64,000 bases of DNA from an uncultured Lachnospiraceae bacterium (GCA_947086895.1 CAMUAR010000002.1:45253-109252), one strand, 5' to 3'; numbered from the stretch's first letter, positions 23,183-64,000 are shown. Notes: a model not told the origin generated them from the sequence alone. Program-made: numbers and translations.

Positions 23183-26080
23183 TTAAAACTCTTCTGATCC
23201 CCTGTGTTTTTTCTTATATACTGCAATTATAATACCGCGTGTTACAAGCATACCGACAACAAGCGCGGCTGCAAGGCAGGCAATGTATGCCCAGACAGGC
23301 ATCAATGGCTCTTTTACCACATCATCCCCGCCGACCGGCATATCTCCGCCCATATTTGGGTCGTCAATTCCCGGATTCCAGTCAAAGTTCTGTTCTCCCT
23401 GCACATAAGTTTCTGGAAGTTCAAATTCCTTTGTCACCTCATCACCGTTGCTGTCCTCAAAATGAACGATCAGTTTTCCTTTTGCAGTTCCCTCCACGGT
23501 CGGGATAATTGAAATTTCCTGATAATTGCTGCTGCCTGCGCTGACGGAACCGATAATCTGCGATGTTCCGGTCTCCATCTTAAAATCCCCCTCAAGCGTC
23601 ACATAAACATTGTTGAGCGCTGATTTGCCCATATTGTAAAAGTCAAACATCAAGGTGGTCGCCTGATTGATTGTCGCGGTATCCCATCCATAACCAATCG
23701 CAAGATTCTGTACAGCCGGACGTGAATTCTCAACCGCCTGCAATTTAATTGGAAGCTCTTCTGTCGCGCCGCCCGCCTGCAAATCTGCCTGCGACATATC
23801 ATCGTACTCGTAGCCGACTTTAATCTTTAAATCGTAAGCTCCCGTCGCGGTATCGGATTTTACTTTTAATTTGATGGTATGTTCCATCGTCGCGCCCGGT
23901 TCAATCGCATCGACATAAAAGCTGTTGCTTCCTGTCGTCGCAGAAAATATATCCTGCTCTTGAAGTACAGTAACTGTAATATTTTTTGCTGTTTTGGAAG
24001 CATGAGTATTTTTTAATACAAATGTAAACTCAAAACTTTCACCTGCACGAAGCTCGTCAGCACTTGTGGAAAAACTATCCACAATCAGCTTTGGCTTTCC
24101 GCTTGTAGCGGCAGCTTTGCTTTTTACATTTAAAATATACATTGCAGTTTCCTCGGTCTGAATATCGCCGTTTCCATCCTTATAGCTAAGCTCTAACTTC
24201 AGCATATTAAAGCCTTCTGCAATCTCCTCGCCGACCTTAAACGTCATAGAAACTTTTTTTGACGCACCCGGCGCAATCGTTCCGACTTTTGTGTATACTT
24301 CCGAATTGACCGGCTCAAAATTATTGCTGGCAAGATTTAAACCGCGGAACTTTACTTCTGTAATCTCCTTTGTACCATTGTTGGTAACGGTAAACGAAAC
24401 GGTAACATTCTCCCCGCCGATTGGAGAGGACGGACTCTGAGAAATCCCACTGATTGCAACACTGTTTTTAATCTGCTCTTCGGTCACTTTCTTAACATTT
24501 AAAATATAAACGGTTGTGCTTTCCTTCTGCTGCGCATCGTTCGCGTCCACGTAGGAAGCAGCAAGGTGCAGTTCGTTCATTCCTTCTGGAATACTGCTGC
24601 CAAGCCGGAACTTCATTGTCACCTCTTTCGCTTCACCCTTTTTCAGCACGCCGATTTTATTTCTTACATCCGCGCTTAACGGCTCAAAGCCATTGCTTGA
24701 AAGCTCTTCTCCATAAATCTGCAAATCCGAAATATCATTGCTGCCGTTGTTTGTGACTGTGAACTTTACAGTTACAACATCCCCCGCCATCAACTGCTCT
24801 GGAGACTGCGTAACATTGCTGATTACAACCGCGTTCTTCACTTCTGGCTTCGGCTTTTCCTCCGCCTGTTTTACTGTGATATAGGCTTTTGCCACCGTCA
24901 TTAGCTTATTGCCTGCACTGTCCTCATAATTTACCAAAATATCCAGCTCACGCAGTCCCGCGGAAGCAGATTTTGTGATGGAAAGCGGAATGGAAACCTT
25001 CGCCTTATCGCCGGCATTCACATACTCGACCGGCACACCCTCAGCACCGTACTCAGGAAGGATTCCCGCCTCAGCGCCAATGCCTTTCTGCACAAGAACA
25101 AAAATATTTTCCGCTGTTCTCTTGCCGACATTCTCAAGTTCGATCTCAAGATTCAGCGTGTTGTTTACATCCACTTCAACATTTAATTTATCGGATGTCG
25201 CGGTCAGTTTCGCATCGTTCGTCTCGGCTGTGTTTACAGCTACCACGTTAATATACTGCTCAACGGTCGCCAACGGCTTTTTTTCACCATTTTCGTCCTG
25301 GTATTCATAAGTAACCTTAATTGTTTTTAGTCCGACAGTTGCCGTTGGAAGCACGCGCAGCGAAAGCTCATGATGCATATTTGTTCCGGCGCGGACATCG
25401 CCAAGCTTCATTGTCGGCACGCTGTAATCAGCCACAATGCCGCTCTCGCCGTAATCCACAGTCATAAATGTATTATAAGCTGTAATCTCACCTGCATTTT
25501 TTGTGTCAAACTCAAGTTTGAACCTGGAGCCGATTGCAGAAGCATTCTCATCGTACTTAAAGTTCTGCACGGTCATCTGCGCCGGCGCTTTCTGTCCAAC
25601 TACGCGGATCTGAAATGGAAGTGTAGCTCCATTCACTTGCTGCATTTCACCGCCAAAAACCTCAAATTTCATTCCAGTAAAACTAAATTTAATTTCTGCA
25701 TTGTATGTACCAATCAGCACGCTGTCCTTTAATGTAAGGTCAAACTCCACATAAGTTTCCGCCTGCGTGCTGTCCGATGTAATGCGTTTTACCTCCTGTC
25801 CATTGCAGGTCAGTTTTGCATCGGTTGTATCAAAAATCTTATCATCCGTTGTAACTGTCGCAAAAACATCCGAACTGATGGTTAAATTCTCTACTGCCTT
25901 AATCGGTATTCTAAAATGTGACGTGCCGCCCGCAGCCATTGGATAAAGCGTTTTTGTCCCTGGTATCATATAGATATCGCCGCTCGCAGCGTCCGCCGCC
26001 TTTGCGGTCACCAAGCCTCCAAAACCGGATACAATCATTGCACAGATCAAAAACAGTGCAAAAAATTTCCTTCTTTTCAT
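23183..26080 (-). CDS. Large cell-surface protein with seven CARDB / COG1361-like beta-sandwich modules, a signal peptide and a C-terminal TM anchor
   Basis: Signal peptide MKRRKFFALFLICAMIVSGFGGLVTAKA. About seven modules of 105-125 aa, for example ...ISNVTQSP..GDVVTVKFTVTNNG...YILNVK. C-terminal TM WAYIACLAAALVVGMLV plus a basic tail. Confidence 0.7.
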   Translation of the reverse strand: MKRRKFFALFLICAMIVSGFGGLVTAKAADAASGDIYMIPGTKTLYPMAAGGTSHFRIPIKAVENLTISSDVFATVTTDDKIFDTTDAKLTCNGQEVKRITSDSTQAETYVEFDLTLKDSVLIGTYNAEIKFSFTGMKFEVFGGEMQQVNGATLPFQIRVVGQKAPAQMTVQNFKYDENASAIGSRFKLEFDTKNAGEITAYNTFMTVDYGESGIVADYSVPTMKLGDVRAGTNMHHELSLRVLPTATVGLKTIKVTYEYQDENGEKKPLATVEQYINVVAVNTAETNDAKLTATSDKLNVEVDVNNTLNLEIELENVGKRTAENIFVLVQKGIGAEAGILPEYGAEGVPVEYVNAGDKAKVSIPLSITKSASAGLRELDILVNYEDSAGNKLMTVAKAYITVKQAEEKPKPEVKNAVVISNVTQSPEQLMAGDVVTVKFTVTNNGSNDISDLQIYGEELSSNGFEPLSADVRNKIGVLKKGEAKEVTMKFRLGSSIPEGMNELHLAASYVDANDAQQKESTTVYILNVKKVTEEQIKNSVAISGISQSPSSPIGGENVTVSFTVTNNGTKEITEVKFRGLNLASNNFEPVNSEVYTKVGTIAPGASKKVSMTFKVGEEIAEGFNMLKLELSYKDGNGDIQTEETAMYILNVKSKAAATSGKPKLIVDSFSTSADELRAGESFEFTFVLKNTHASKTAKNITVTVLQEQDIFSATTGSNSFYVDAIEPGATMEHTIKLKVKSDTATGAYDLKIKVGYEYDDMSQADLQAGGATEELPIKLQAVENSRPAVQNLAIGYGWDTATINQATTLMFDFYNMGKSALNNVYVTLEGDFKMETGTSQIIGSVSAGSSNYQEISIIPTVEGTAKGKLIVHFEDSNGDEVTKEFELPETYVQGEQNFDWNPGIDDPNMGGDMPVGGDDVVKEPLMPVWAYIACLAAALVVGMLVTRGIIIAVYKKKHRGSEEF

Positions 26081-58608: not shown

Positions 58609-60189
58609 CTACAATATTTTTATATGTTTTACCTTTGTCAAAAATTCAATTTCAATTTCTCTGCTGAATTCCGTAAGAACTTCTGTCATTCCCTGATTTA
58701 TTGCATCCATAACTGCTCTCTGCGCATGAACATTCATCCCAGGATCTGCATAATTTTCTTCTGGATCTGGAGAATAGCCATCCAACCCCGCAAGAGAAAT
58801 CTTTTTCACACCTATATTAATTAAAAATTTAATCAGCATCATCCCTGCATTGTCACACACCGCTTCATTTGCATTCAGCAGCTCTTTGTACTTGGTCTGA
58901 AGATAAACATCCAAAGCTGGAATATTGGACGTCACAATACATTTTTCACGTTTTTTTGCATCCAACTCCCGATACCTGCGCAGATTACTTAAAAAAATAA
59001 AATCTGTTATATTTTCATCGTACTCATAATTTACACTAAAAGTAATAATATTTTTCTGTAAAGAATACTGTACAATCTTTTCTCTTTCCGCGGCAGAACT
59101 TTTCCCTGGAGCAATCAACAGCACTTCTCTGTCCAACAGCTTGTCCTTCAGCTCTGCAAGTCTTTCCTCCTGCACGCGGTCTTTTTCCATATATTTTAAA
59201 TATAGTTCTTCAATATACTCTTTATCATAAGCCGCTTTTTTTCCTTCGTCCATCATATCAAAAATTTCATTCATTCCCTCGATCGTCAAAGTTTTACGAT
59301 TGTCCAAATATCCCGCATAATTTGGGTGAGCATTATGCGCTGCAGAAATATAATTTGGAAGAGAATATCCCCATGAATTCCCTTGATAAAAATCATTTAA
59401 TACCTCGTCGATAATATTTAAAAGCGGCGGAAGCTGATATTTTGTCTCAATATTTTCATTTAGATATCCCACAAATAATTCTGTATTTAAATTTCCTGCA
59501 CCGCGCCCCATCCCATACACAGATGAATCCATAATAAGACTTCTGTTTGTCGGAAGAGCTACCAACGCCTGCGCATTTGCATACGCCAGCTGCATATTGT
59601 TATGAGAATGAAACCCAATTAAAATTCCAGGATTTAAATTATGCTCTACCATATAAAAAAAACGTGTCAAATCCTTTTCTTTCATCACTCCAAAACTGTC
59701 CACAATATAAAAAGCATAAGGATTTAACTGATTTGTTCTTTTAATTAAATCAAGGAACTCCTCATCTGTATAACTTAAAGAAACCATTGGCTGCAAAAAT
59801 ACTTTGTATCCCTTTTTTTGAATCTGCCCGCATACCTTAAACGCTTCCAAAAGGTCTTTTTTGTGAAATGCCACGCGAATTCCATCCAATGGACTTTCTT
59901 TGCATTCTGGAAGTTTTAAAATATCATACTCCCCATAATTGATCATTGCCACAAAAAGACTATTATTTTGTTTTTTTGGAATTACTTCTACAATTTGTTC
60001 CACTTTTGTAAATCGCGTAGAATCCGGGATGTACGGTACTTGATCTGTGAGAAATCCGCACTCAATAACATCCATCCTGGCTTCCACTAAACCTGCTATA
60101 ATTTTTTTAATATTTTCACACCCAAATTTCCAGTAGTTACAATAACCGCCATCACGCAGAGTACAATCCAGGACATGGATTCGATTCAT
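58609..60189 (-). CDS. HMGL-like (DRE-TIM) aldolase-domain protein with a C-terminal extension of about 190 aa (possibly DUF115/MptE-like)
   Basis: N-terminus MNRIHVLDCTLRDGGY is the pyruvate-carboxyltransferase/HMGL-like signature. The C-terminal part (...LLIAPGKSS...DNAGMMLIKFLINIGVKKISLAGLDGYS) is only tentatively assigned. Confidence 0.65.
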   Translation of the reverse strand: MNRIHVLDCTLRDGGYCNYWKFGCENIKKIIAGLVEARMDVIECGFLTDQVPYIPDSTRFTKVEQIVEVIPKKQNNSLFVAMINYGEYDILKLPECKESPLDGIRVAFHKKDLLEAFKVCGQIQKKGYKVFLQPMVSLSYTDEEFLDLIKRTNQLNPYAFYIVDSFGVMKEKDLTRFFYMVEHNLNPGILIGFHSHNNMQLAYANAQALVALPTNRSLIMDSSVYGMGRGAGNLNTELFVGYLNENIETKYQLPPLLNIIDEVLNDFYQGNSWGYSLPNYISAAHNAHPNYAGYLDNRKTLTIEGMNEIFDMMDEGKKAAYDKEYIEELYLKYMEKDRVQEERLAELKDKLLDREVLLIAPGKSSAAEREKIVQYSLQKNIITFSVNYEYDENITDFIFLSNLRRYRELDAKKREKCIVTSNIPALDVYLQTKYKELLNANEAVCDNAGMMLIKFLINIGVKKISLAGLDGYSPDPEENYADPGMNVHAQRAVMDAINQGMTEVLTEFSREIEIEFLTKVKHIKIL

Positions 60190-60227
60190 TTTATGTTCTC
60201 CTTTATTCTTAAAAATCTATAAAATAC

Positions 60228-60881
60228 TTATTTATTTTTATAATAGTTATATATAGCATCTGCTAAAATAAAATCTTCTTCCTCGTCAATATCTATCCCT
60301 TCAATCCCTCCAACTTCCACAAGAAATGGCTTATCTCCTATCCGCCTTCCAAGCTCTGTCACAACACTTTGTCTATAAATATAAAATCCGCTGGTCTCTT
60401 CATAAATTACTGGTAAATCTTGTGTACGCGGAATATTATTAATATCATAATTTATTGGTTCTTCATTTGCCCACAAAAAATCTTGTATTTTCTTCGCCGA
60501 AAAAGAAGAATCATATTCACCATCACAAACTGCTTTAATTCCTTTACGAATCGAATTTGTAGAAATAAATGGTGCTGTCGCATGTGCCAATACATAAACG
60601 TCTGCAAAAATTTCTTGCGCAAATTGGCGTAATACTTCACTAATGGAAGTTTCATCTCTATCTAACCATGGATCACGCTTTAAATATTTTATCTTCTTTG
60701 GAAGAAATGATTGAATTTCATGCGAACTGCAATAAACATAAATTTCATCAATTTCTTCTATTTTAGAAAGAGTTGATAAAATATAATCACATAACGGTTT
60801 TCCACCAGTAAAAGATTTTATATTTTTACCTGGTAAACGACGATTGGTTAATTTCATTGGTACAAACGCAACAATCTTCAT
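60228..60881 (-). CDS. Acylneuraminate-type cytidylyltransferase family protein (CMP-sugar synthetase-like)
   Basis: Start at ATG 60881 (GGGAGGA RBS). MKIVAFVPMKLTNRRLPGKNIK matches the CTP_transf_3 N-terminal motif. Confidence 0.75.
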   Translation of the reverse strand: MKIVAFVPMKLTNRRLPGKNIKSFTGGKPLCDYILSTLSKIEEIDEIYVYCSSHEIQSFLPKKIKYLKRDPWLDRDETSISEVLRQFAQEIFADVYVLAHATAPFISTNSIRKGIKAVCDGEYDSSFSAKKIQDFLWANEEPINYDINNIPRTQDLPVIYEETSGFYIYRQSVVTELGRRIGDKPFLVEVGGIEGIDIDEEEDFILADAIYNYYKNK

Positions 60882-60933
60882 AAATCCTCCCATTCTGCTT
60901 CCCAAGACAATTTTATATCTCAAAACATATAAA

Positions 60934-61352
60934 TTATTTTTCTAAATTTTCGGATGCTATTTTAACAAAATCATCATAACTTCGAATATACTCCTCTGGA
61001 TCATAACATTCGCTTGCCAAAACCAAAAGTACAGAATCAGAGCTAAAATCATACATTTCTTTCCATACCATAGCTGGCAAATATAAACCCATATACGGAC
61101 GATCTAAACAAAAAACTTTCTCCCCCCCCCGCACATTTTTACTCTTACTTTACTTGTACCTATTACATTAATTAATAAAAATTGTGTTTTTCGATTAGCA
61201 TGCTGTCCGCGCACTACATCTGAATTTGAGCCATATATGTAAAATATCCTTTTCGTTTCAAAAGGTATGTCCTTTTCATTTTCCACTACTACAAGATGAC
61301 CATATTCATCACCATATTGTTCGAACTTATTAATCATTGCGGAACTTTTCAT
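60934..61352 (-). pseudogene. FdtA/QdtA/WxcM-type sugar 3,4-ketoisomerase, frameshifted at a G9 tract (candidate phase-OFF allele)
   Basis: ORFs 61104..61352 and 60934..61134 overlap at the C9 run 61122..61130. The joined product has the cupin pattern ...RGQHANRKT...VRVKMCGG(G)EKVFCLDRPYMGLYLPAMVWKEMYDFSSDSVLLVLAS..YD..EYI. Confidence 0.7.
61122..61130 (-). repeat. Homopolymer G9 on the coding strand, C9 on the plus strand
   Basis: Counted directly: t61121, then C at 61122..61130, then g61131. Confidence 0.95.
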
Positions 61353-61353
61353 A

Positions 61354-62478
61354 TTAGTTCTCCCACTTATTTATTTTTTCAATTACATAATCTGTCTGCT
61401 CTGTTGTCAATAACGGACTCATTGGCAAACTTAATTCTGTTGCATGTATTTCTTCACTAATTAAATAGCTTTTTTTATTCCACTCTCGATATGCCATCTG
61501 TTTATGCGGCGGTATTGGATAGTGAATCAATGTCTGTATCCCTTGCGTTTGCAAATATTTCTGTAAACAGTTTCGCGTCTTACATCGCACGGGAAAAATA
61601 TGAAAAACATGATTCCCATTCTGAGGTATCTCTGGCACAATAATTTGTGGATGTTTTATTCCATCGATATAGCGCAGCGCGATAGAAACACGTTTTTCAT
61701 TATCCTCGTCCAAATAAGCCAGTTTTACATTAAGCACTGCTGCTTGAATCTCATCCAATCTGCTGTTGCATCCTTTATATTCAAATACATACTTTTTTCC
61801 AGAGCCATAATTAGCAAGCTTTCTTATAACCTCTGCCAAATCATCATGATCTGTTGTAACTGCACCTCCATCCCCCAATGCTCCAAGATTCTTTCCGGGA
61901 TAAAAACTATGCCCTGCTACATCTCCAATACTTCCTGTTCTTCTATTTCCAAACCTGCATCCATGAGCCTGTGCATTATCTTCAATCAATTTTAAGTGAT
62001 ATTTTTCGCATAATTCTTTTATCTTTTCTGTATAAGCGCATTTTCCATACAAGTGAACAATCATAATAGCACGAGTGCGCTCTGTTATTGTTGCTTCTAT
62101 TTTAGAATCATCAATCTCCATTGTGTTTTGATTCGGTTCTACCAGAACAGGAACAAATCCATTTTCAGAAATTGCCAAAATTGATGCAATATAAGTATTG
62201 GCTGGAACAATAACCTCATCGCCTTCTTTCATAACTCCCAATTCTTTATATGCTCTGAGAATCAAGGTTAATGCATCCAGACCGTTCGCCACTCCGATAC
62301 AATGTTTTGTCCCAATATAATTTGCATAATTTTCTTCAAAACGTTTTACTGTCTCGCCAAGAAGATACCATCCACTATCAATTACTTCTAAAACAGCATT
62401 CTGAATTTCATCACGATACTTTTCTGTTATACTCTTTAAATCTAGAAAAGGAACTCGAATAAAAGGTTCTCTTGTCAT
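61354..62478 (-). CDS. DegT/DnrJ/EryC1/StrS family sugar aminotransferase (FdtB/QdtB-like)
   Basis: PLP-lysine motif [15 protein letters not shown], and NAQAHG. Lies immediately upstream of, and tightly coupled to, the FdtA-like gene. Confidence 0.85.
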
Positions 62479-62620
62479 TTTTTCTTTCTCCTTTCGTTTT
62501 TCTTAACAAATCAAGCAATTGTAAAACCATAAAATCTGCCCAAATATAAAATTATTCGTTTCTTTCATTTAAATCTTATAATTCTTTTCACCTAAATTCT
62601 GCTTTTTTATTTCATGCACA

Positions 62621-63613
62621 TCAAAAAGGTTCTAAAAATGATAAGATTATTTTGGCAATAACTTTCATATCATCTTCTGTATATCTTTGATCAATTGGCA
62701 GCGGCAGCAAGTATTTAGATAGTTTTTGTTCTGTTTTATTACACTCTTTTATATCCAAACATTTTTTCCACCACTGTGGTATATAAATTTTATTTGTTAT
62801 CAAATAACTTCTTAGTTCCGAATTTGACACTAAAAACGGATAGACCATTGGAACCATATCTTTTTTATAATAAAAAGAAAATTCATTTTTATCGCCAAGC
62901 AAAAAATGCAGCATTTCAAAATTCTTTCTTCTTTTCTGTACCACCTCTTTATAACCTATCGCCGATAAAATCGACTGTGTCAATTTTGACATTCCTGCTG
63001 GGACAGATTTTGAAATAATTTCTTCGCTTTCCAAATAATCTGGATAAGCTTCATTTGTTCCTTTATCTAAAGATTTTAACAAATAAAGAGAATGTAAGTA
63101 AGAACATTCTGGTTCAAGTAATATGGTAGCAGCATTTTTCCCTATCAAATAAGCGCCATCAGAAACTCCAAAAAACTTTCTGCAAGAATAAACATTATAA
63201 GCATCTGTAATCGGCTCTGTAAAAAAACTCTGTGTATTATCAATTATCAAATTTTTATATTCTGAACAATATCTTAAAAACTCTTCTTGTGGAATTAAAC
63301 CAAAATAATTTGTCATTAAAAAACATGCTTTTTCATCTGCAAGTTCTGAACTCATAAAATTACTTATAATTGGTCGTAATTTTGAGTCGATATGATAAGA
63401 AAATATTTGTATTCCTTCATCTTCACAGGCTTTATATACGGATGGACACATATAATAAGGTAAAAAGATTTCCCTGCACTGCATTTCTCTAATTGCAAGT
63501 TTAATTGCATTTCTCGCACTATTTAATTCACATCGGTTTACAATCTTATCAAAATACCCCCCCCCGTTACATTTTTTTATTTCAAGTGGAAAATATCCTC
63601 CATACTCATTCAT
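62621..63613 (-). CDS. Hypothetical glycan-biosynthesis protein, possibly DegT-like PLP-fold, with a 5'-proximal G9 tract
   Basis: Start at ATG 63613 (GGGAGGAAAA RBS). The segment YSCRKFFGVSDGAYL resembles the S..K...(D/G)GG PLP region of DegT-type enzymes. This assignment is weak. Confidence 0.55.
   Translation of the reverse strand: MNEYGGYFPLEIKKCNGGGYFDKIVNRCELNSARNAIKLAIREMQCREIFLPYYMCPSVYKACEDEGIQIFSYHIDSKLRPIISNFMSSELADEKACFLMTNYFGLIPQEEFLRYCSEYKNLIIDNTQSFFTEPITDAYNVYSCRKFFGVSDGAYLIGKNAATILLEPECSYLHSLYLLKSLDKGTNEAYPDYLESEEIISKSVPAGMSKLTQSILSAIGYKEVVQKRRKNFEMLHFLLGDKNEFSFYYKKDMVPMVYPFLVSNSELRSYLITNKIYIPQWWKKCLDIKECNKTEQKLSKYLLPLPIDQRYTEDDMKVIAKIILSFLEPF
63557..63565 (-). repeat. Homopolymer G9 on the coding strand, in frame, encoding GGG at codons 17-19
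   Basis: Counted directly: C at 63557..63565. Coding strand reads ...AAA AAA TGT AAC GGG GGG GGG TAT... Confidence 0.95.
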
Positions 63614-63687
63614 TTTTCCTCCCATTCCGCCGCATAGGACACAAACAATTAATACATATCATTACGCTCTAATCTCTTAAAATTTCT

Positions 63688-64000
63688 TTATGCTTTTACC
63701 TTTTTCTTCTTCAGTCTTGGAATTAAAAATTTTTTTGCTTCCTGGAAAAGTTTTGTTCGATGTAAAAGAAGAATCCATAAAATATTTGGTATTATCACAC
63801 ATAAAACTAATTTAACTGCCAAGTTTCTCCACCCGGAACTTCCTGTTGTTATGGGAATATTTGCAAAAAGAGGAGCAGAACTTATCACAGTAACCACCAT
63901 TACTCCAAAAAACAACATAAGTTGTGTTATATACTCTCTAAGACCTTTTCTAAAATACTCTTTAAATACTATCCACGTCGCCCATGGAGTTAAAATAAAT
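63688..64000 (-). CDS. Polytopic membrane protein, probably the C-terminus of a Wzx-type oligosaccharide flippase; N-terminus lies beyond the window
   Basis: Hydrophobic C-terminal segment ending in a basic tail (...IPRLKKKKVKA). The frame stays open to the window edge. Sits in a glycan-cluster context. Confidence 0.5.
   Translation of the reverse strand, partial: FILTPWATWIVFKEYFRKGLREYITQLMLFFGVMVVTVISSAPLFANIPITTGSSGWRNLAVKLVLCVIIPNILWILLLHRTKLFQEAKKFLIPRLKKKKVKA

Follow-up and report, generated by a model that had tools for sequence, protein, structure and literature searches.

Does a run of nine guanines near the 5' end of a glycan gene act as a switch in an uncultured gut commensal? 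The question is raised by a 64,000-nt stretch of DNA from a Lachnospiraceae bacterium, hereafter the window, in which a 330-codon gene (the target gene) carries a G9 tract, T1, and a second G9 tract, T2, is located 2.4 kb downstream of it. Our results make it likely that T1 is a hypermutable homopolymer that phase-switches a functional DegT-like glycan gene and, together with the independent tract T2, generates glycan variants.

A pair of rare poly-G tracts in a putative surface-glycan cluster

The features of the locus are collected in Table 1. The window and longer related contigs, with Pfam matches for L001 and L016, together give the gene order. In the direction of transcription, the cluster comprises an epimerase/dehydratase, a hydrolase-like protein, a GT2 glycosyltransferase, Wzy_C and a 495-aa protein without assignment, followed by FdtA#1, a FemAB-like and an MptE-like protein, the Wzx flippase, the target gene, DegT and FdtA#2 (with T2), and then by the CTP_transf_3 cytidylyltransferase, the HMGL-like protein, two feoA genes and feoB. 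The Wzy_C, GT2, FdtA#1, FemAB-like and MptE-like genes lie beyond the window end, and the two FdtA proteins are 42% identical. Judged from its predicted products, the cluster is a Wzx/Wzy-type surface-glycan locus with two pairs of isomerase and aminotransferase-like genes. A promoter/terminator scan of positions 60800-64000 gave nothing above shuffles, and the operon structure is therefore read from shared strand and short gaps only. Among the GTDB species representatives found, none has a FeoB protein more than 77% identical to that of the window, the closest matches (75-77%) being uncultured mouse-gut Lachnospiraceae and Acetatifactor-like MAGs; a scan of genome contigs with the target protein found no relative.

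Table 1. Coordinates of genes and sequence features at the T1/T2 locus, counted from the first nucleotide of the window
Feature	Position	Strand	Remarks
HMGL-like aldolase-type protein	58609..60189	-	distal cluster gene
CTP_transf_3 cytidylyltransferase	60228..60881	-	distal cluster gene
FdtA/WxcM-like sugar 3,4-ketoisomerase gene (FdtA#2)	60934..61352	-	T2 divides it into ORFs of 82 and 66 aa
T2, G9	61122..61130	-	mid-gene in the FdtA-type 3,4-ketoisomerase gene; out of frame, OFF in the window
Canonical DegT/DnrJ/EryC1 aminotransferase, 374 aa	61354..62478	-	PF01041, E = 3e-104; between the two putatively switchable genes
Target gene, 330 aa	62621..63613	-	putative sugar aminotransferase, assigned by fold as divergent DegT-like (fold-type I PLP)
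T1, G9	63565..63557	-	C9 on the + strand; codons 17-19 (N-G-G-G-Y), in frame, target gene ON in the window
A7 run	63572..63578	-	6 nt upstream of T1
Shine-Dalgarno GGAGG	63618..63622	-	5 nt upstream of ATG 63613
Wzx-type flippase gene (Polysacc_synt), 3' end	63688..64000	-	upstream of the target gene

T1 and T2 are the only G/C runs of at least seven nucleotides in the 64 kb; each is exactly nine long, and both fall in the last 3 kb. Shorter runs number 119 (length four), 24 (five) and two (six), with none of seven or eight. Under a first-order Markov model, the whole window is expected to contain 0.19 runs of at least nine, and its last 6 kb 0.0054; two or more such runs appeared in 1.3% of simulated windows. 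C8 is expected 0.83 times, and its observed count was reached in three of 100 dinucleotide shuffles, a weaker test because it uses the whole-window composition on the C-rich + strand. The GC content of the last 6 kb is 31-34%, versus 42% for the window, and GGG makes up 17-28% of the glycine codons here. The feoB neighbourhoods of 80 related Clostridia, 1.30 Mb in total, contain one run of at least nine (~0.8 per Mb) and three runs of eight. We conclude that the pair of G9 tracts is not a chance feature. The initial annotation had taken the pair for a signature of contingency loci rather than for common, randomly placed repeats, and the DNA examined, with two such runs in the window at this density in relatives, agrees with that view. 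In a strain whose FeoB protein is identical, another glycan cassette occupies this chromosomal site and contains a G10 tract, so that three poly-G tracts have been seen in all, two in one cassette and one in the alternative cassette.

The target gene encodes a putative DegT-like enzyme

The target protein returned zero Pfam or NCBIfam matches at E <= 0.01 and no match among PDB sequences. Its family is large (4892 homologue matches, mostly unnamed and from Lachnospiraceae-type organisms), and a few members carry automatic annotations, as dTDP-4-amino-4,6-dideoxygalactose transaminase or as DegT family. An AlphaFold2 model computed from 78 homologues reached a pLDDT of 92.9 and a pTM of 0.91, and the best 50 PDB matches of this model in Foldseek were all sugar aminotransferases (probability 1.0, TM 0.57-0.68, identity 10-17%), including HCAN_0200, ArnB, WbpE, PglE, PseC, WecE, DesV and WlaRG. 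K146 and D125, candidates for the Schiff-base lysine and the PLP-binding aspartate, are invariant in all 78 homologues, and N126 and Q128 are kept in at least 90% of them. A weak hhalign alignment of the target with the neighbouring DegT protein (E = 0.014, probability 3%) sets DNTQAFF of the former over DNAQAHG of the latter. The AlphaFold2 and Foldseek results thus place the predicted product in the fold-type I PLP fold, with sugar aminotransferases as nearest structures, and its sequence does not match the PF01041 (DegT/DnrJ/EryC1/StrS) model. We class the target by its modelled fold as a divergent DegT-like PLP enzyme and do not count it within PF01041 at the sequence level; this assignment comes from structure comparison only, sequence searches having given none. 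The dN/dS ratio of the gene is 0.19 at dS 0.48, versus 0.05-0.14 for neighbour genes, indicating that it is maintained by purifying selection, though less constrained than its neighbours. Its first description as a glycan gene is therefore upheld by the predicted DegT-like fold and by a cluster that holds Wzx/Wzy, FdtA, DegT and cytidylyltransferase genes.

T1 lies in the coding sequence, downstream of the start codon

The target gene begins with the codons ATG(63613) AAT GAG TAT GGA GGA TAT TTT CCA CTT GAA ATA AAA AAA TGT AAC GGG GGG GGG TAT, and the frame opened by this ATG runs uninterrupted through 330 codons to the stop at 62621. Sequence and ORF checks thus confirm what had been noted of T1, an in-frame G9 at codons 17-19 preceded by an A7 run, and the reading of T2 as OFF in the same cluster likewise stands, with the FdtA-type gene broken into its 82-aa and 66-aa ORFs. 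In silico, tracts of G7, G8, G10 or G11 at T1 are predicted to truncate the product at 20-25 aa. The tract occupies a loop that is variable and tolerant of indels in the family, tract-bearing lineages having two extra residues at this stretch, and residues 11-20 are the least confident part of the model (mean pLDDT 72).

These effects presuppose that translation starts upstream of the tract. If the true start were downstream, for example at M44, T1 would belong to a leader or regulatory region. There is indeed an in-frame ATG at codon 44, and gene callers pick it when T1 is out of frame, giving 287-aa calls. However, an M-x-EYGGYLPLE motif upstream of T1 is nearly invariant in the 78 homologues (E3, G5, G6), and N31 and R34, which also precede M44, are conserved across the same set. 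Residues 27-44 are moreover modelled as a core strand and helix with pLDDT >95, and the Shine-Dalgarno sequence precedes ATG 63613, unchanged in every related locus and in a lineage of 86% identity. On N-terminal conservation, GGAGG and the modelled core residues, we rejected a start at M44, which we regard as exceedingly improbable, and retain the start upstream of T1, as originally proposed.

Tract lengths differ between otherwise identical loci

The DNA of 24 near-identical contigs (L001 to L024) from independent ENA and Logan metagenome assemblies was read across the locus. We excluded L008 from the tract counts, since its contig begins with many errors and T1 cannot be read in it. Among the window and the 23 readable contigs, T1 is G8 in six (L010-L015), G9 in 12 (the window, L001-L004 and L016-L022), G10 in five (L005, L006, L007, L009 and L024) and G11 in one (L023). 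T2 is G9, G10 or G11 in the related contigs. Two DNA-pattern scans of JGI metagenomes across T1, with a variable gap, gave no match.

The variation is confined to the tracts. Among pairs of loci without a single substitution over at least 2 kb, tract length differs in 23 of 34. L012 and L016, for instance, differ at none of 12,992 aligned positions other than T1 (G8/G9) and T2 (G9/G10); as a rough estimate, two tract changes without a substitution in 13 kb would mean that each tract mutates at least 3-4 orders of magnitude faster than an average site. Sixty-nine variable sites define three SNP haplotypes, each of which occurs with G8, G9 and G10 at T1, and one also with G11, showing that T1 changes are recurrent. 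The only main-lineage indels outside the G tracts are a T-run deletion in L021 and those in the error-prone start of L008. Runs of A7-A8 and T7-T8 are constant within the main lineage, and the A7 run next to T1 has zero indels across related loci. In a lineage with 86% identity at the nucleotide level and 81% at the protein level, the tract is kept uninterrupted and also varies (G9 in L105, G10 in L106). A lack of length polymorphism had been named beforehand as grounds for refutation, and both tracts are polymorphic on identical backgrounds, T1 with G8-G11 and T2 with G9-G11.

The 90% protein cluster of the target contains 330-aa forms together with N-truncated calls of 316, 317, 287 and 276 aa on long contigs, which agree with the in-silico predictions for out-of-frame alleles: the 316-aa forms start with MYRGGYFDK (ATG TAT CGG GGG GGG TAT) and correspond to the G8 allele, the 317-aa forms start with MYRGGGYFDK and correspond to the G11 allele, and the 287-aa and 276-aa forms start at M44 or M55. 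In the cluster of the neighbouring DegT protein, truncated forms occur on very short contigs only. About 34 contigs in the target cluster are in frame versus 16 out of frame, i.e. ~2/3 ON, an approximate figure with retrieval bias, since related contigs were retrieved through protein variants and allele frequencies are biased for that reason. Length drift would give about one third in frame.

T1 and T2 occur in all four ON/OFF combinations

The full PF05523 domain is matched by FdtA#2 across its two ORFs, on which profile positions 5-70 and 75-129 fall, which makes the gene a member of this family. In the main lineage, G10 at T2 restores an intact 139-aa FdtA (L014, L016 and L018), and G9 or G11 splits it. 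In two diverged lineages an AGAGAA-type purine repeat adds 6 or 9 nt directly after T2, which resets the ON length to G9 in L024 and to G10 in L001.

Both tracts are readable in 12 loci. T1 and T2 are both ON in L001, L016 and L018; T1 is ON and T2 OFF in the window and L017; the reverse holds in L014 and L024; and both are OFF in L010, L011, L012, L013 and L023. OFF/OFF is thus the commonest combination (5/12), which would also fit relaxed selection. Since all four combinations occur, the independent switching claimed for the pair is borne out at the population level. The (T1, T2) lengths seen are (9,10), (9,9), (8,9), (8,10), (8,11) and (11,9). L010, L012 and L013 are one base shorter than L016 at both tracts, as a systematic one-base undercount of G runs would produce, but this explanation was rejected on the discordant pairs (8,10), (8,11), (11,9) and (9,9).

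A model for switching and its alternatives

T1 combines a G/C repeat of hypermutable length (about 7-8 or more) within an ORF, length changes that shift the frame, and variation on constant flanks, three of the features by which contingency loci are recognized, and our data support its interpretation as a putative simple-sequence-repeat contingency locus. In the model that we propose, slipped-strand mispairing during replication would add or remove G at T1. G9 (or G6, G12) keeps the frame and would yield the 330-aa enzyme, and G8, G10 or G11 would stop translation after 20-25 residues, leaving no enzyme. T2 varies independently in the FdtA gene, which in the main lineage is ON at G10, and the two tracts would give four expression states of the Wzx/Wzy-type surface-glycan cluster, which probably makes sugars of the 3-amino-3,6-dideoxyhexose type. 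It is tempting to read the layout as one in which each tract would control one isomerase/aminotransferase-like pair, T1 through the aminotransferase-like member and T2 through the isomerase. Glycan variants would then coexist in a clonal population, where they could plausibly hedge against selection directed at the surface, whether by phage, antibody or another agent. That switching within one clone is reversible and frequent is our inference from these sequences, and a changed glycan structure upon switching is suggested by the enzyme fold and the gene neighbourhood. The recurrent T1 changes and the assembly breaks at T2 are indirect hints of high-frequency switching.

T1 might instead be a non-adaptive mutational hotspot that drifted from three glycine codons, its frameshifts reflecting decay in a dispensable, strain-variable cluster. 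Such drift into a 9G run is listed among tract origins (PMC6321876), and keeping three GGG codons across dS 0.48 has a ~27% neutral chance, so that the persistence of these codons is not by itself proof that the repeat is under selection. The frequency of OFF/OFF loci points the same way, as does the replaceability of the glycan locus, L109 carrying a different cassette beside the same feoB. This account is nevertheless unlikely: the dN/dS ratio indicates a maintained gene, ON alleles are twice as frequent as drift would predict, and the presence of G8, G9 and G10 in each of the three haplotypes speaks for repeated change and not for one-way loss. Two 9-nt tracts within 6 kb, where relatives have ~0.8 per Mb, and a third in the alternative cassette are also hard to reconcile with it, as is the low share of GGG among glycine codons. 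Alternatively, phase variation could be incomplete, out-of-frame alleles being read through transcriptional slippage, ribosomal frameshifting on A7...G9, or re-initiation. Long homopolymers are known sites of RNA polymerase slippage, and a candidate start exists in an alternative ATG within AAAAAAATGTATC; in the ATC allele it is in frame with a G8 or G11 tract, and gene callers report the 316/317-aa ORFs (MYRGG(G)YFDK) from it in G8/G11 alleles. This ATG, however, has no Shine-Dalgarno sequence (upstream context GAAATAAAAAA), its product would lack the nearly invariant E3, G5 and G6, and in the window allele (AAC) it is directly followed by TAA, which leaves leaky expression decidedly improbable.

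A technical origin of the length differences, through Illumina homopolymer miscalls, assembler errors or two-colour dark-cycle poly-G artefacts, has also to be weighed. A break exactly at T2, or an artificial G14/G25 tail at the end, is seen in many contigs (L002, L003, L005 and L019-L022), several of the variant calls (G10 and G11) come from contigs at 3-8x coverage, and the contig ends of L008 and L021 are visibly error-prone. Against this, G8/G9 at T1 and G9/G10 at T2 are found at internal positions of contigs with 10-29x coverage (L010 18.9x, L016 29x, L017 20x, L018 10x), the A and T runs of seven to eight do not vary within the main lineage, and the two tracts do not shift in step, (8,10), (8,11), (11,9), (9,9) and (9,10) all being present. 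The same alternative lengths also recur across studies and assemblers (SPAdes-style ENA, Logan), and we consider an artefact very improbable. Taken together, these considerations favour phase switching by tract length as the explanation of the T1 polymorphism.

Significance and comparison with known systems

The broader proposal, that an uncultured gut Lachnospiraceae runs a multi-locus poly-G 'phasome' on a surface-glycan locus, with switching visible in public metagenomes, is in our judgement evenly balanced. If true, contingency loci of the Campylobacter or Neisseria style would not be confined to pathogens, and simple-sequence-repeat (SSR) switching, beside DNA inversion, would shape glycan heterogeneity in dominant gut Firmicutes. 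The T1/T2 locus is a concrete example from commensal Clostridia with population data, G8-G11 occurring on one strain background across hosts and samples, and a putative contingency locus in an unusual host, in a DegT-like nucleotide-sugar gene family outside Pfam coverage. Studies of how phage, IgA and glycans interact in Lachnospiraceae gain a target in it. The locus is also a caution for practice: in MAG annotations, genes of this kind will be labelled as frameshifted, truncated or pseudogenes, and the tracts cause breaks in assemblies. In the full texts searched, no precedent turned up for phase variation by SSRs in Lachnospiraceae or among commensal Clostridia, an absence that is not proof.

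The FdtA/FdtB and QdtA/QdtB pathways lead to the dTDP-3-acetamido-3,6-dideoxyhexoses of Firmicutes S-layer glycans and O-antigens. As in these pathways, an FdtA-type 3,4-ketoisomerase (PF05523) here adjoins a DegT-family aminotransferase, whose fold the target is predicted to share; unlike their aminotransferases, the target matches no DegT Pfam model and has 10-17% identity to solved members. We know of no report of switchable tracts in genes of the FdtA/FdtB or QdtA/QdtB type.

Bacteroides capsule promoters vary in phase by DNA inversion, and to our knowledge nearly all phase-variable surface glycans described in gut commensals are switched by invertible promoters (Bacteroides, Akkermansia, C. 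difficile). Whereas inversion systems use site-specific recombinases and inverted repeats, the T1/T2 locus would use homopolymer length, with no dedicated enzyme. The outcome, clonal heterogeneity in surface polysaccharide or in components of the cell wall, would nonetheless be common to our locus and to Akkermansia cps1 (PMC13343947) and the Clostridioides difficile cwpV and flagellar switches (PMC2784873).

The Neisseria genes lgtA/lgtC/lgtD and pgtA resemble the locus more directly, with independent poly-G tracts in glycan coding sequences (PMC2192423, PMC2193922), and in that genus such tracts combine to produce alternative surface-glycan structures (PMC2192423, PMC2193922). Neisseria is Gram-negative, and its genes encode glycosyltransferases for LOS or the pilin glycan, whereas those described here would encode biosynthetic enzymes of a Wzx/Wzy-type polymer in Clostridia.

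As in Campylobacter jejuni, several independent tracts are found per cluster, frameshifts would switch sugar-modifying enzymes ON and OFF, and tract length differs between otherwise identical genomes. C. jejuni is not known to have MutS/MutL mismatch repair and has 20-30 tracts per genome, unlike the three tracts seen here so far. The host also differs, being an uncultured Gram-positive-type Lachnospiraceae gut commensal and not an epsilonproteobacterial pathogen, and the putatively switched genes belong to nucleotide-sugar biosynthesis (aminotransferase-like, ketoisomerase), whereas those of C. jejuni are mostly transferases. In both, the tracts are intragenic and lie in low-GC glycan clusters, those of the C. 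jejuni capsule, LOS and flagellin-glycosylation loci being, like those here, poly-G runs of 8-11 with a peak at 9-10 (PhasomeIt, PMC6321876; Cj1295, PMC3068675); among phase-variable tracts of Campylobacter, 53% are G9 and 26% G10 (PMC6321876).

Alleles of the in-frame tract T1

Two bases upstream of T1, the G9 tract at codons 17-19 of the DegT-like gene, codon 16 (position 63567, minus strand) reads AAC (Asn) in the window, whereas almost all related contigs carry ATC (Ile). In the ATC alleles, a tract of G8 or G11 puts an alternative ATG (AAAAAAATGTATC) in frame with the gene body, and this is where gene callers begin the N-truncated calls of 316 and 317 aa. In the AAC allele of the window, a TAA directly follows this alternative ATG. 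One further allele, seen as the protein sequence P0128 (ENA contig of 11,184 nt), has IGGEYFD in place of IGGGYFD. This interrupts the tract, whose sequence is presumably GGG GGG GAG; such an allele would be a stabilized, locked-ON variant.

Length and assembly behavior of T2

T2, the G9 tract in the FdtA-type 3,4-ketoisomerase gene, is directly followed on its 3' side by a purine repeat that is longer in the two diverged lineages, by 9 nt in L001 and 6 nt in L024. Because of these differences, the in-frame length of T2 is shifted, G10 being ON in L001 and G9 in L024. Contigs end exactly at T2 in many independent assemblies (the ends of L002, L003, L005, L019, L020, L021 and L022, and the start of L108). 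Some of those breaking there terminate in artificial G14 or G25 tails, L019 bears a chimeric junction following the G9 of T2, and in sample ERZ13657790 one contig stops at T2 while another starts about 20 nt past it. These breaks are compatible with length heterogeneity within samples or with poor read quality across the run.

Outside the G tracts, and excepting the error-prone start of L008, the only indel in the main lineage is the loss of one base from a short run of T (T5 to T4, L021:2575), found in one low-coverage contig. It divides the FemAB-like gene into 36 and 299 aa, and could reflect either ordinary mutation or an error.

G runs at related feoB loci

The Logan contig L109 (DRR585794) encodes a FeoB protein identical to that of the window, with the same feoAB and HMGL-like flank, but its glycan cassette differs, comprising a DegT protein, an RmlC-like isomerase, Wzx and two cytidylyltransferases. 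Its G10 tract lies about 10 nt upstream of the stop codon of the first cytidylyltransferase gene, where a length change would alter the C-terminal tail of that enzyme and nothing else. Across 1.3 Mb of related Clostridia loci, the G12 run of L090 is the sole G/C run of at least 9.

Positions of the additional G runs and of the purine repeat adjoining T2
Feature	Position	Strand	Context
G10 tract	L109:5913-5922		alternative glycan cassette; TCC-G10-TATTT
G12 run	L090:10268-10279		Candidatus Fimimorpha faecalis MAG; ~640 nt downstream of feoB
AGAGAA-type purine repeat	window, about 61110-61121	-	directly 3' of T2
AGAGAA-type purine repeat	L001:12399-12413		directly 3' of T2
AGAGAA-type purine repeat	corresponding L024 region		directly 3' of T2

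Putative substrate and product of the glycan cluster

The 965-aa protein encoded at 23183-26080 (minus strand), which shows a weak, below-cut-off match to the NCBIfam 'putative S-layer protein' model (E = 3e-19), may be a substrate of the cluster. Within the cluster, the stretch 58609-60881 encodes a CTP_transf_3 cytidylyltransferase and, next to it, a 526-aa HMGL-like aldolase-type protein whose long C-terminal half is uncharacterised, and an MptE-like protein (Maf-type domain) is encoded upstream (L016:3522-4355, on a near-identical metagenome contig). Taken together, this set suggests a CMP-activated keto-acid sugar, made without a NeuB-type synthase.
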